A DNA stretch of 64,000 nucleotides from a bacterium (GTDB lineage: Bacteria; Zhuqueibacterota; Zhuqueibacteria; Residuimicrobiales; Krinioviventaceae): contig OY843751.1 of assembly GCA_963693055.1 (NCBI GenBank), positions 2,336,001 to 2,400,000 of the forward strand, in the 5' to 3' direction. Below, piece by piece: positions 18,388 to 22,400 of the stretch; positions within the stretch are counted from its first letter, which is position 1, and every line of letters begins with the position of its first letter. The notes below the pieces were generated by a model. It had not been told where the DNA came from and did not search any database. It was given only the letters and a program-made list of their open reading frames with translations. The translations under genes and the position numbers were made by a program.

Positions 18388-18423
18388 TGTCCCTCCAATT
18401 GTAATATTATTTAAAGTTTAGTG

Positions 18424-18438
18424 CATATGACCATAGGA
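18424..18438 (+). repeat. Left terminal inverted repeat CATATGACCATAGGA
   Basis: Reverse complement of 20241-20255 with one mismatch. Confidence 0.85.
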
Positions 18439-18476
18439 ATCATTGTTTTAATAAAAACAGAAATAAGGAGATTCTT

Positions 18477-19316
18477 ATGGCAGATGTTAAAAATAATTAT
18501 GGTTTAAAAAGACTCGAATCCAAGACAGCTAAAAACGCTATTGTCCAAAAACTGTCTCAGGATTTCAATTTGACTCCTATTATTGCCGAAGCTTACTATC
18601 AACAATTTGACCAATACTTTCAGGAACATTCCAACATTTCATTATCAGGAGGTGAAGTCGCTTATGAAGCTGTTGCCGCTGAAGAACCAGCCGGCAAACA
18701 TATCAGATTAACCCGAAAGCTTACGGTCCGTCTCAAACTAATTGACTTTAATACAGATCTGCAAGCCCTGGCTAATTATGGCCTTGCCGGACTTAGACGA
18801 CACCGGATCGCCCGTCTGACTCGACAAGCCTATGATCAGGGTGCTTTACTCAGCTATGAAGACCTGGCAATGCTTTTAACCACCAGTCCGGCCACTGTTA
18901 AACGTGACATTTATCATCTCCGTCATCACGGTATGTTTATCATGACACGAGGTATGAAACATGACATGGGTCCCGGACTGTCTCATAAAACCATCATTAT
19001 TGATCTGTATCTTAAAGGTTATACCTTTTCAGAAATAGAACAAAAAACCAATCATTCTGAAACCAGCATCAAACGTTACCTCGCTGACTTTATGCAGATC
19101 GCCCTTTTATACAAGGAAAATTTCTCTCCGAACCAGATTCGACTCATTGCAAAGAAATCCGACCGCCTGGTGCGCGAGTATATCCAACTCTACCAAACCT
19201 ATCTTCAACAAAACAATACGCGATTAAACGATCTGTTATCTCCTGCGGAACCTGGTGGCGACGCGAAAAAAAAATCCATTCCTCAACATCTATCAGGAGG
19301 CAAAGAAAATGAGTAA
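18477..19316 (+). CDS. DUF1670-like protein A (multiple HTH-like segments)
   Basis: 'AYDQGALLSYEDLAMLL', 'TRG', 'HKTIIIDLYLKG', 'HSETSIKRY'; resembles PF07900 from memory; RBS AAGGAG. Confidence 0.8.
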   Translation: MADVKNNYGLKRLESKTAKNAIVQKLSQDFNLTPIIAEAYYQQFDQYFQEHSNISLSGGEVAYEAVAAEEPAGKHIRLTRKLTVRLKLIDFNTDLQALANYGLAGLRRHRIARLTRQAYDQGALLSYEDLAMLLTTSPATVKRDIYHLRHHGMFIMTRGMKHDMGPGLSHKTIIIDLYLKGYTFSEIEQKTNHSETSIKRYLADFMQIALLYKENFSPNQIRLIAKKSDRLVREYIQLYQTYLQQNNTRLNDLLSPAEPGGDAKKKSIPQHLSGGKENE

Positions 19317-20133
19317 ACCTTTGACTAAAGAACAAATTCAACTCAAAAAAATGAGACGACTTAAAGATAAAGATCTCAAGCAGTTACTACTGTACAACTT
19401 TTTGAATAGCTATGGCTATGACAAAGGAGCCATCACTGCCAATGCCATCATTGATGATATCCTTAAAATCATTGATGACTATTTCCTTGTCTCCTCTATT
19501 GATGATGACTTGCACCATATTCACTATGGGCAACTCGTCTGGATGGCTGTTCCTGTCGATGAATACCCCAAACGCGGAAAAAGTATTGCCGCTACCCGAA
19601 TGAAACCCGTTGTCCTCTCTTTCATTACTGATCAGGATACTTCTCATATCGCGCATGGTTTTGATTCCAAAACTTTAAGGAAAAGACGCCTCAAACGTTG
19701 GGTTGATGAAGCTTTTGATCAAGGTGCTCTGCTTACTCAACTTGACCTGGCTATGTTACTCGGTGTCTGTGATGCCGTTGTCAGTAAATATGTAAATGAA
19801 ATCCAAAAAGAAGGGCATCTCTTACCAACGCGTGGCAACATCCATGATCTTTCCGGCGCTATTACTCATAAACGCGAAATTATCACTCTGTATCTTGAGG
19901 GATATCTCACTCCCGAAATCGCTTTGAAAACCAAACACAGCAACGAAGCGGTTGACAGGTATATCAAAGATTACCATCGTGTTGAATTACTTTGGAAGCA
20001 TGACATTAAAAACCTTGATCAAATCAGCCAGCTGGCAAGACTTTCCAAACGTGTCATACAACAATATGTTGATCTTTTGCCTGATAAAATTAAAAATCAA
20101 AGGAGTCAGTTGAATCTTTCAAAGAACAATTAG
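19309..20133 (+). CDS. DUF1670-like protein B, paralog of A
   Basis: 'AFDQGALLTQLDLAMLL', 'PTRG', 'HKREIITLYLEG', 'HSNEAVDRY'; RBS AGGAGG at 19295-19300; ATG overlaps the end of ORF A. Confidence 0.8.
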   Translation: MSKPLTKEQIQLKKMRRLKDKDLKQLLLYNFLNSYGYDKGAITANAIIDDILKIIDDYFLVSSIDDDLHHIHYGQLVWMAVPVDEYPKRGKSIAATRMKPVVLSFITDQDTSHIAHGFDSKTLRKRRLKRWVDEAFDQGALLTQLDLAMLLGVCDAVVSKYVNEIQKEGHLLPTRGNIHDLSGAITHKREIITLYLEGYLTPEIALKTKHSNEAVDRYIKDYHRVELLWKHDIKNLDQISQLARLSKRVIQQYVDLLPDKIKNQRSQLNLSKNN

Positions 20134-20162
20134 TTGCTTTTATATTTCCCTTTTATTACTTT
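20134..20162 (+). promoter_or_regulatory. Outward-facing sigma70-like promoter near the right end of the element
   Basis: TTGCTT (20134-39), 17-bp spacer, TACTTT (20157-62). Confidence 0.4.
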
Positions 20163-20240
20163 CAGAATGACAGATCACCAAATTTATTAATGATCTGACG
20201 CTCCGTTGTATTTTTAGGGGGTTTTATAAATTTCTTTTTC

Positions 20241-20255
20241 TCCTCTGGTCATATG
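20241..20255 (-). repeat. Right terminal inverted repeat (TCCTCTGGTCATATG)
   Basis: Reads CATATGACCAGAGGA on the minus strand. Confidence 0.85.
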
Positions 20256-20258
20256 ATA

Positions 20259-21080
20259 CTATTTTAACAAACTTAATTTTTGGGTTTTAGAAAATTGATC
20301 TCCTATGACAGTGACAAAGTAAATACCCGAAGCGCAACTGTTTCCCAGGTCATTAGTACCATTCCAATTCAATTCAAATGATTGATTTATATAGTTTTCT
20401 ACTAATAGTGTTTTTATTTTTTTTCCTGTAATATCATAAATGTAAACTGATATATTTTGAGGTTTTAAAAGTTCTGCTCTGATTTTTGTACCGGCATTAA
20501 AGGGATTGGGGTAAGCACTTAATAATGATAACGTTTCCGGCTGTCTGGATTTGTTGATTCCACTGACAACGTCTGATACAGTTATTTTGATGAGTACGTC
20601 TCTGTCATTATAAGGCTGCCAGCCACAACAATCATGAAAAAATAGCCTGTCTGTTATAGGTTCATTAAATTCGCAACCAAAAGAAACAAAAAAAGTACTT
20701 TCTATTTCAAAAGAAACCGCAATATCACAATCTAAGATAATGTTTTTATCACTTAAAACTATTTCATTCCAGCCGGTCTGTGAAGCAGTTACAGATAACG
20801 GTCCAAAAAATTCTACACTTGGCATTTTTTCATTTATATCATACAAATACAAGTTGAAGGTATTTCCTTCATCCAGTGATTCTACATAGTATTCAATCTT
20901 TTGCAACTGGCATTCACCGGTTATATCAAATCGTGTAGCTAATTTCTGAAGAAACGGGATATTGAATTTGGCTTCAATATTTGGATTACCATTGTAATAT
21001 GAAATTACCTGTTCAACTTGTGTAAATGCCAATTGTGTCGCTAATAAAATTAAACCTGCTACTAATTTCCAGTTTTGCAT
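20259..21080 (-). CDS. Secreted protein with T9SS/FlgD-type C-terminal domain
   Basis: Signal peptide; 'AYPNPFNAGT...WNGTN..G..CASGIYF...KLSLLK'. Confidence 0.85.
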   Translation of the reverse strand: MQNWKLVAGLILLATQLAFTQVEQVISYYNGNPNIEAKFNIPFLQKLATRFDITGECQLQKIEYYVESLDEGNTFNLYLYDINEKMPSVEFFGPLSVTASQTGWNEIVLSDKNIILDCDIAVSFEIESTFFVSFGCEFNEPITDRLFFHDCCGWQPYNDRDVLIKITVSDVVSGINKSRQPETLSLLSAYPNPFNAGTKIRAELLKPQNISVYIYDITGKKIKTLLVENYINQSFELNWNGTNDLGNSCASGIYFVTVIGDQFSKTQKLSLLK

Positions 21081-21098
21081 AATCAGATCCTTTTCGAT

Positions 21099-22400
21099 TC
21101 AATATGAGAACCACATACCAAACAGCATTCCTGTTAATGTTGACATGATTACTACCAGTGAAATAAAAACAACCGTCTTTTTTAATCCCATAATTTTATT
21201 TATAACAAGCATATTGGGTAATGACAATGCCGGTCCTGCAAGAAGCAACGCTAAAGCAGGCCCTTTTGCCATTCCGCCGGCAATTAATCCTTGTAATATG
21301 GGTATTTCAGTTAATGTAGCGAAATACATAAATGCGCCCACAACTGAAGCAAAAAAGTTTGCAAAAAATGAATTATCACCCACAAACATGATGATCCATT
21401 TACTACTAATTAAACCTTCACTGCCAGGAGACCCTAATAAAAATCCAGCAACGAGTACTCCCATTGCAAGCAGGGGGAGGATCTGTTTCGCAAATCCCCA
21501 ACTAGATTCCATCCATTCCGCAGCATCGCCTTTGTTAATTGATAATATGATTGTCAAGCCGATGACAGCAATTAAAAATGGAACAAGTGGTTGTGAAACC
21601 AACAAAGCTGTTACAATTGTTATGATTGATAAAAGGAGTACATGAAATATTTTAATATTTAAAACGTATACAAGAGAAAAAGCAAAGAGAACTCCGAATC
21701 CTGCAGTAATAAACCATTTATTGCTCCAGATAAAGTTCCACAAGCCTGTCGATTCTGCCGGTTTGCCCCAGTTTACAAAGATCAAAATGGCAACCAAGAT
21801 AAAGAAATGAAAAGCTGTTTTCCACAAGGGACGTTCATTTCCGCTATCATGCAAAATAACCTGGCTTTTTTCTTTTTCCCGCTCTTCTTTAATAAAAAAG
21901 AGATGCATAAGTAATCCAATTACAATACTAAAAACTATTGCACCGATAATTCGGGCAATGCCCAGTTCAAAACCCAGAATCCTGGCAGTTAGTATAATGG
22001 CAAGAATATTAATAGCCGGGCCTGAATAAAGAAATGCAACTGCTGGTCCTAAACCGGCACCACGTTGATATATGCTTGCAAAAAGGGGGAGGATTGTACA
22101 AGAACAAACAGCAAGAATAGATCCCGAAAGAGAAGCTACTAAATAGGCAATCCATTTTTTTGCCTGGACTCCCAGATATTTTATAACAGCAGACTGGCTG
22201 ATAAATACACTAATTACACCCGCTATAAAAAAGGCGGGTACAAGGCATAAAAGGACATGCTCACGGGCATACCATTTGAGTAAAACAAGTGATTCATTTA
22301 CAGCATTCAATAGCTGTGGTTTTTCCACAGGCAAGAAATATGCTGAAATAAAAAGTATTATAATCCATAAAAGTGGTTTTTTTTCATTTTTCCAGTTCAA
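21099..22400 (-). CDS. ArsP (DUF318) family permease
   Basis: 'EHVLLCLVPAFFIAG', 'AVCSCTILPLF' and 'MYFATLTE' motifs. Confidence 0.88.
   Translation of the reverse strand: MNWKNEKKPLLWIIILFISAYFLPVEKPQLLNAVNESLVLLKWYAREHVLLCLVPAFFIAGVISVFISQSAVIKYLGVQAKKWIAYLVASLSGSILAVCSCTILPLFASIYQRGAGLGPAVAFLYSGPAINILAIILTARILGFELGIARIIGAIVFSIVIGLLMHLFFIKEEREKEKSQVILHDSGNERPLWKTAFHFFILVAILIFVNWGKPAESTGLWNFIWSNKWFITAGFGVLFAFSLVYVLNIKIFHVLLLSIITIVTALLVSQPLVPFLIAVIGLTIILSINKGDAAEWMESSWGFAKQILPLLAMGVLVAGFLLGSPGSEGLISSKWIIMFVGDNSFFANFFASVVGAFMYFATLTEIPILQGLIAGGMAKGPALALLLAGPALSLPNMLVINKIMGLKKTVVFISLVVIMSTLTGMLFGMWFSY

Follow-up and report, generated by a model that had tools for sequence, protein, structure and literature searches.

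A candidate His-His-Tyr pocket in the helix-turn-helix proteins of a DUF1670 insertion element

INTRODUCTION

Known insertion sequences (ISs) use DDE, DEDD, HUH, serine or tyrosine enzymes, and among the HUH enzymes the Y1 transposases (IS200/IS605) are marked by a His-hydrophobic-His motif. Here we describe an insertion element of 1,854 bp found in a 64,000-nucleotide (nt) stretch of bacterial DNA (GenBank assembly GCA_963693055.1, contig OY843751.1, positions 2,336,001 to 2,400,000), referred to below as the window and numbered from its first letter. The element is demonstrably mobile, with six copies of it and seven of a second DUF1670 element in the complete genome and 114 insertions parsed from the loci retrieved. 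It nevertheless encodes helix-turn-helix (HTH)-type proteins only. Its coding content consists of two open reading frames, ORF A and ORF B, alone. The original prediction, made from the letters of the window, had read a set of residues shared by the two products as a possible divergent tyrosine-based strand-transfer site, while allowing that they might equally belong to an HTH recognition helix.

Tyrosine recombinases are defined by an R...HxxR...Y tetrad, and the lambda overlap is 7 bp (PMC8371274). Integration of the CTX phage by XerC is described in PMC3442271 as the exchange of one strand, which needs pairing beside the cut and is completed by replication. Members of the IS1111 group (IS110 family) have sub-terminal inverted repeats of 11 to 13 bp with 7- and 3-bp extensions (PMC11187229), and in Spo11/TopVIA the catalytic Tyr lies in the winged-helix domain of a dimer that cuts with a 2-nt stagger (PMC12203943). 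A literature search for "DUF1670", "PF07900" or an element of this kind found no paper, with subscription journals, ISfinder and supplements lying outside the search, and NCBIfam names neither ORF A nor ORF B.

Our preferred reading, to which we assign a probability of roughly 0.38, is that the ORF A and ORF B proteins form a heteromer which would be the element's own recombinase, with Tyr201 of ORF A as the predicted nucleophile in a His-His pocket of the second HTH (HTH2). This reading is suggested by an element without any other gene that is nevertheless present in six identical copies in a genome without an IS110-type transposase, and by a pocket that is kept in both subunits despite the deep split between the A and B lineages.

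RESULTS AND DISCUSSION

The shared residues lie within a helix-turn-helix domain

The residues at issue are found in the C-terminal halves of the products of two forward-strand genes that overlap, ORF A (18477..19316; 279 amino acids [aa]), encoding the A-type subunit, and ORF B (19309..20133; 274 aa), encoding the B-type subunit, whose ATG at 19309 overlaps the end of ORF A. Both products match DUF1670/PF07900 (198.8 and 210.8 bits against a gathering cut-off of 25) and they are 34% identical across 196 aa. The predicted motif was present in ORF A as numbered, namely TRG (R158, codon at 18948), HD (H162-D163), HK (H170-K171), HS (H193-S194) and RY (R200-Y201), and also in ORF B as R175, H179-D180, H187-K188, H210-S211 and R217-Y218 (Y218 at 19960-19962).

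ORF A is organized as an N-terminal helical hairpin and beta-hairpin followed by a winged HTH1, HTH2 and HTH3. The AlphaFold2 model, built with 145 sequences (pLDDT 91.3, pTM 0.72), has helices at residues 170-179, 184-191, 195-213, 218-225 and 229-244 and two beta strands in all. HTH1 (residues 99-165; 18771..18971) carries the invariant R113 and Q121 and ends in the R158-G159...D163-x-G165 loop. HTH2 (residues 170-213; 18984..19115), the candidate catalytic pocket, contains H170 (18984), K171, H193 (19053), R200 and Y201 (19077), and the ORF B copy of this pocket (19831..19962) contains R175, D180, H187 (19867), K188, H210 (19936), R217 and Y218 (19960). HTH3 (residues 205-244; 19089..19208) repeats HTH2 in tandem and has a canonical core of F205, an I, L or M at 227 across the family, and Y235; all of these features are on the forward strand. 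In the model, helix 1 begins with H170, the turn contains H193-S194 and the recognition helix carries R200-Y201. The alternative that the original prediction had offered was therefore structurally right: S-x5-RY spans the turn of a three-helix HTH and its recognition helix.

Profile comparison (hhalign) with HTHs from related genomes matched the HTH2 block to the HTH of IS3 OrfA (probability 88.6) and to that of resolvases (56.4), and aligned K171 with a K, H193 with an I and Y201 with a W of the IS3 OrfA HTH. Against HTH3 of the same protein the probability was 95.8, as for tandem repeats, with H170, H193 and Y201 corresponding to F205, I/L227 and Y235. HTH2 thus shares the register of the IS3 OrfA (PF01527) and resolvase (PF02796) HTHs, with K171, S194, R200 and Y201 at standard positions. 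Unlike those HTHs, it has invariant His at two hydrophobic core positions, and unlike IS3 elements and resolvases, the DUF1670 proteins lack a separate catalytic domain, whether DDE or serine. In HTH2, His occupies both the start of helix 1 and the turn (154/154 and 153/154 of the intact family units described below) where HTH3 has hydrophobic residues, and the turn is hydrophobic in the accessory units too. Judged by sequence, the peculiarity of HTH2 is the replacement of core hydrophobic residues by two invariant His, beside Y201, D163, R158 and K171. The three positions concerned (F, I and W) pack together in IS3-type HTHs, and from this core packing H170, H193 and Y201 would be expected to touch.

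A fold search with the ORF A model returned HTH or winged-HTH domains only among the matches listed (best Z 6.6, root mean square deviation [rmsd] 1.7, 56 residues aligned), including the DesR HTH on residues 168-216 (Z 5.4, rmsd 1.7, 49 aligned). No recombinase, topoisomerase IB or telomere resolvase was among the best 50 of the 2,880 fold matches with a Z of at least 2, and the lower matches may include them. Foldseek of the whole model against the PDB gave no match at E≤0.001, and PDB sequence searches returned HTH repeats alone. A match in BFVD (E 8e-4, TM 0.14, rmsd 19.8) was treated as multi-HTH noise. Spo11/TopVIA provides, in the account cited above, a precedent for a catalytic Tyr on a winged helix. 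Its only match to the model among those listed (1d3y; Z 5.5, rmsd 2.4, 61 aligned) was on winged HTH1 and not on the His-Tyr unit, and unlike Spo11/TopVIA the DUF1670 proteins have no TOPRIM among their Pfam matches and two strands in the model. Two His and a Tyr as a conserved set, together with insertion without a long duplication, are also reminiscent of the HUH Y1 transposases; in contrast to these, the His of DUF1670 are 23 to 24 residues apart, the model is without a beta-sheet core, and the ends are inverted repeats instead of hairpin guides.

The N-terminal hairpin and beta-arm (18477-18842; ORF A residues 13-100) were folded alone (pLDDT 86.6). The best matches were to HU/IHF, a fold in which a beta-arm follows two dimerization helices (Z 4.8-5.0, rmsd 2.4-3.0, 39-40 aligned), a weak likeness confined to residues 13-54. 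The Foldseek E value to HU/IHF was 0.34, and the hhalign probability was 4.1 compared with at most 0.9 in 30 column shuffles. As a weak lead from the model, an IHF-like A/B heterodimer would account for the constant keeping of two paralogs. A heteromer as such is plausible from the sequences, A and B being separate old lineages of which natural fusions exist.

Two histidines and a tyrosine are conserved across the family

A profile search yielded 3,080 DUF1670 representatives at 50% identity, of which the best 150 were used; these were scored on a profile containing the motif, and the conservation counts are therefore inflated. After exclusion of three broken or chimeric proteins (P0185, P0210 and P0257) and splitting of fusions, the units counted were 154 intact ones (49 A-type, 77 B-type, 21 fused A and 7 fused B) and 18 accessory N-terminal ones. 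Near-invariance in the intact units was observed for H170 (154/154), H193 (153/154), Y201 (153/154), G165 (152/154) and R113 (150/154). D163 and Y235 (each 144/154), K171 (134/154) and R158 (125/154) were less constant, and R200 (118/154), S194 (95/154) and H162 (61/154) were not invariant. The flagged residues are conserved beyond what chance would give, though to unequal degrees: the family-wide conservation anticipated for them was borne out for H170, H193 and Y201 and less so for K171, D163 and R158. Position 201 was never Phe or Trp. The spacing from R158 to H170 was 12 in 151/154 units and that from H193 to Y201 was 8 in all 154, while H170 and H193 were separated by 23 residues in 126 units and by 24 in 28.

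Both synonymous codons were freely used at H170, K171, H193 and Y201 (106 A and 90 B distinct motifs), suggesting that the constraint acts on the protein; the pattern used for this count required H, H and Y, and its 37 misses include a few copies with a single residue altered (L024 A, L064 B and L115 A). In a FastTree tree of the units, A and B formed separate deep lineages, with one A-labelled row within B. Two B-type copies, L035 and P0144, had H193 changed to Tyr and K171 to Phe, and L035 was also without Y201; these are possibly decaying copies.

DUF1670 proteins compared with tyrosine recombinases

Several features are shared with tyrosine recombinases (PF00589; XerC/XerD, lambda Int): a His in a turn with a Tyr on the helix that comes after it, two related subunits that adjoin, site-specific insertion that rebuilds the target, and a common spacing around a Gly. 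In all 26 recombinases of a comparison set from the same group of genomes, the HxxR Arg was 11 residues before the Gly and the Gly 12 before the His, and H170-G181-H193 of DUF1670 is also spaced by 11 and 12. It could be proposed from this identical local spacing up to the second His that DUF1670 is a highly diverged tyrosine recombinase, its HK...G...H...Y having arisen from the RH...G...H...Y of the integrase catalytic domain with A and B acting like XerC and XerD, but such a descent appears very improbable. The recombinase-register alignment puts a His (H170) at the catalytic Arg position and a winged HTH in place of the upstream Arg/Lys region. The first His of HxxR is absent, a His being found at 167 in 1/154 units, and the 8/154 HxxR matches are H170-K-x-R. 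The Tyr is one residue nearer to the His, as the original prediction had noticed (8 in 154/154 units compared with 9 in 26/26 recombinases). The hhalign probabilities of DUF1670 against the recombinase catalytic domain were 0.19 and 0.58, PF00589 was absent from the Pfam matches of ORF A and ORF B up to E=1, the block is instead a tandem repeat of HTH3, and the junctions described below are without a 7-bp overlap, the exchange covering 1 to 2 bp.

By these sequence comparisons, DUF1670 A/B is not a member of the tyrosine recombinase family, and the suggested divergent membership was not upheld. What survives of the original idea of a Tyr-based site is the His-His-Tyr core in HTH2, which is lost together in an accessory paralog.

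The element rebuilds the last codon of its target gene

The element occupies 18411..20264 on the forward strand, including the dinucleotide at each junction, and no internal differences were found among its six copies in the complete genome. Public contigs included one 1,854-bp contig in each of three runs of one sample, with flanks that diverge at both ends. The junction dinucleotide at the end far from the target gene (18411..18412) has an element-side base that varies with element type and an outer base that, in relatives, equals that of the other junction. It is followed by a 7-bp terminal extension (18413..18419, forward strand) lying outside the left sub-terminal inverted repeat (18420..18433, forward strand), whose perfect core is 10 bp here and 13 bp in relatives. 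The right sub-terminal inverted repeat (20246..20259, reverse strand) has as its outermost base the last base of the target's rebuilt TAG stop, and the 3-bp terminal extension with its junction dinucleotide (20260..20264, reverse strand) completes the last Lys codon and stop of the target. The target gene (20259..21080, reverse strand) encodes 273 aa with a C-terminal type IX secretion system (T9SS) type A sorting domain (TIGR04183, E 1.2e-11, above the cut-off). The element is therefore placed in the last codon of the target, with the Lys codon and stop rebuilt and no truncation.

Sub-terminal repeats of about 13 bp, asymmetric extensions of 7/3 (or 6/3) bp and one fixed target and orientation are features also described for IS1111 in the account cited above. 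Unlike IS1111, no DEDD transposase was found, either in the element by Pfam or in the complete genome (0 PF02371 matches). A trans-acting IS110 helper was considered and set aside, none being present in the complete genome.

A genome of the same genus (G085) is syntenic at 18399-21114 but has neither the element nor the target gene, and the exact empty site was not found in this congener. No circle or empty-site joint was listed in public contigs for either DUF1670 element; contigs drop rare forms, so that this is no evidence, and no RNA holder was listed. The distribution of DUF1670 is patchy, with matches in 33/167 genomes of its own phylum (E≤0.001) and in 3/401 and 5/401 genomes of two other phyla (E≤1e-20; each count includes the centre genome). 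A match was also found in Methanosarcina acetivorans, among the control genomes; the family spans bacteria and archaea.

Junction sequences point to an exchange of one or two base pairs

From 190 gene pairs, 110 distinct insertions were parsed, and the gene-side junction continued ATA in 107 of them (3 were not parsed). The far junction keeps the target base after the dinucleotide, which was G in 50/110 insertions; G was never found at the gene-side junction. In a stricter parse of 114 insertions, the dinucleotide was the same on both sides in 103, with the first base differing in 8 and the second in 3. The second base thus matched in 111/114, being G in 9, and the stop codon lay one base after the dinucleotide in 104/114. 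Where the first base differed, the far copy followed element type, and the 7-bp extension was constant within an element. In Arg-ending target genes (L134, L138, L149, L021, L182, L184, L185 and L011) the second junction base was G on both sides and in Lys-ending ones it was A, indicating that the base common to the two junctions varies with the last codon of the target. Of the junction rows, 61 have a single extension type in common, most of them being near-copies from Poribacteria; short metagenome contigs may be chimeric, and L138 and L139 have one flank in common.

These sequences suggest an exchange confined to 1 to 2 bp, perhaps one, which might take the form of a short stagger, a 1-bp duplication or a single strand transfer completed by replication. 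A canonical double exchange over an overlap of about 7 bp is at odds with the retention of the far-flank base. The pattern, compatible with a single strand exchange of the Xer/CTX or integron type, is not diagnostic of the enzyme. Integration of CTX phage likewise has short homology next to the crossover and a mismatched base that is inherited in one direction; unlike the phage, the present element is a two-gene multi-copy IS and is targeted to the last codon of genes with a T9SS domain.

The fit of the junctions to a single strand exchange as described for XerC and CTX phage (PMC3442271) raises the alternative that the DUF1670 pair merely binds and bends DNA, with H170, H193 and Y201 providing a structural metal site or backbone contacts, and that a recruited host XerC/D-type recombinase or topoisomerase does the cutting, as happens with Xer-exploiting elements. 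Every structural match listed is a DNA-binding HTH or winged HTH, K171 and Y201 are at ordinary HTH positions, and the N-terminal hairpin is weakly like HU/IHF, which are DNA-bending dimers, all of which would suit this alternative. Recruitment is harder to reconcile with inverted repeats that differ between DUF1670 lineages, with targets in which no repeat-like arms were seen (no comparison with dif was made) and with a family that spans bacteria and archaea. In addition, two invariant core His in both subunits, jointly lost in an accessory copy, would seem to exceed what DNA binding usually needs. On balance we regard host recruitment as somewhat less likely than our preferred reading; if it were correct, the element would represent a new way of hijacking a host enzyme.

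The downstream non-coding region was considered as the source of a guide RNA and set aside. This right non-coding region is 18 to 225 nt in most elements and unconserved by eye, and is only 18 to 30 nt in 13/97 same-target relatives, so that a seekRNA-like guide appears unlikely from the sequences. A short match to target-like sequence was seen in the region in this element and the Poribacteria copies.

The pocket is lost from accessory units of fused proteins

Natural fusions (P0122-P0127, P0136, P0164 and related proteins) join A to B (about 530 to 546 aa) or an accessory unit to A (about 500 to 570 aa), and four-unit chains of 930 to 952 aa carry a further shortened unit; no loci of the fused or accessory type were found in viral contigs. 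The accessory N-terminal units keep the scaffold (R113 in 18/18, G159 in 16/18, S194 in 13/18 and F205 in 11/18) and have lost the pocket, with H170, K171 and H193 each in 0/18, Y201 and R158 each in 1/18 and D163 in 2/18. Position 193 was hydrophobic in all 15 rows that reach it (I/L/V/F/Y) and position 201 in all 14 that do (I/W/L/Y, one Tyr counted). This is the pattern expected of a catalytically dead copy. In the fused proteins, R158 was kept in 21/21 A units and 0/7 B units (Lys in three) and K171 in 5/21 A units and 7/7 B units, which hints at a division of labour between the subunits.

A catalytic pocket need not imply a catalytic Tyr. With Tyr201 in a structural role, H170, H193 and D163 might coordinate a metal for the activation of water or of a DNA 3'-OH, or else the covalent intermediate might form on a His. 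The non-canonical residues of HTH2 are indeed the two His and not the Tyr, D163 is present in 144/154 units with a Gln five residues later in 7/8 A rows that are without it, and the 1-bp match on both sides of the insertions (111/114) might reflect a brief duplication of the target, left by repair of a staggered cut. We nevertheless consider this chemistry unlikely, as none of the 154 intact units has Phe or Trp in place of Y201, yet accessory units have Trp, Ile or Leu there, and as the model, with two strands only, contains no DDE/RNase H or HUH fold.

Weighing Tyr201 as the nucleophile

Several observations weigh against the A/B heteromer as a recombinase with a Tyr201 nucleophile. Y235 in the His-free HTH3 is nearly as conserved as Y201 (144/154), and S-x5-RY occurs in 4/5 resolvase HTHs; a Tyr conserved in HTH3 and in resolvase HTHs means that invariance of the Tyr alone is no sign of a nucleophile. 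No known enzyme fold was matched to the ORF A model among the matches listed. The accessory units form one clade and thus represent one loss event, and the loss of a specific DNA contact would be expected to give a similar pattern. D163 is missing in 8/49 stand-alone A units. Most fused A units have lost K171, and the fused B units R158, so that one of the two subunits can do without these basic residues. The genome also has six PF00589 (tyrosine-recombinase) matches, XerC/D-like genes among them, so that a host enzyme would be available.

Under our preferred reading, that of Tyr201 as nucleophile, the A/B heteromer would use its HTHs to recognize both the sub-terminal repeats and the end of the coding sequence in genes with a T9SS sorting domain. 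With H170, H193 and Y201 in contact, D163, R158 and K171 could act together with the two His in activating the Tyr and positioning the phosphate, possibly with the help of a metal, so that A/B would act as a tyrosine transesterase outside the tyrosine recombinase family. For movement, a circular form of the element would be excised. Its insertion would be a 1- to 2-bp exchange within the last codon of the target, through either a staggered cut of very short offset or the transfer of a single strand that replication completes. More tentatively still, we propose that DUF1670 A/B may constitute a new recombinase class derived from an HTH, in which two core His made a recognition-helix Tyr into a nucleophile, converging on tyrosine-recombinase chemistry; an IHF-like heterodimer would then carry out scarless last-codon insertion in genes for secreted proteins, using a 1-bp core and needing no guide RNA. 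The catalytic assignment is a putative one, and the question of the element's chemistry is narrowed to three to six mutable residues; if Tyr201 is the nucleophile, the outcome would be a new enzyme class, a DNA-binding motif turned into an active site and possibly a compact tool for site-specific insertion.

Other DUF1670 elements and minor observations

The second DUF1670 element, about 30 to 40% identical to the first, is present in seven copies in the same genome, two of which abut copies of the first element. It has different inverted repeats and the same kind of target (L001:1140-3045, G000:C1), and its genes are reversed relative to the ends, the 3-bp end being upstream of ORF A. The two elements abut at L002 and L003 (G000:C1:507829-511588 and 1346307-1350145), once tail-to-tail and once with both inserted nearby, suggesting that a site or end left by one is reusable by the other. 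Orphan single ends of the second element with no adjoining DUF1670 gene were found at G000:C1:333436, 1730447, 3844052 and 5975648, three of the four at stop codons of T9SS-like genes. These are remnants of old insertions or products of imprecise loss.

A divergent DUF1670 subfamily (L022, L025, L028 and L127-L133) has other inverted repeats, flanks unlike T9SS gene ends and B subunits without R158. Finally, 36/97 distinct right non-coding regions (L056-L117, L172, L174 and L180) contain a near-consensus sigma-70 promoter directed towards the 3-bp end, and none was found on the opposite strand. In a circle, such a promoter would be predicted to cross the junction into ORF A, and in place it would run antisense into the target.

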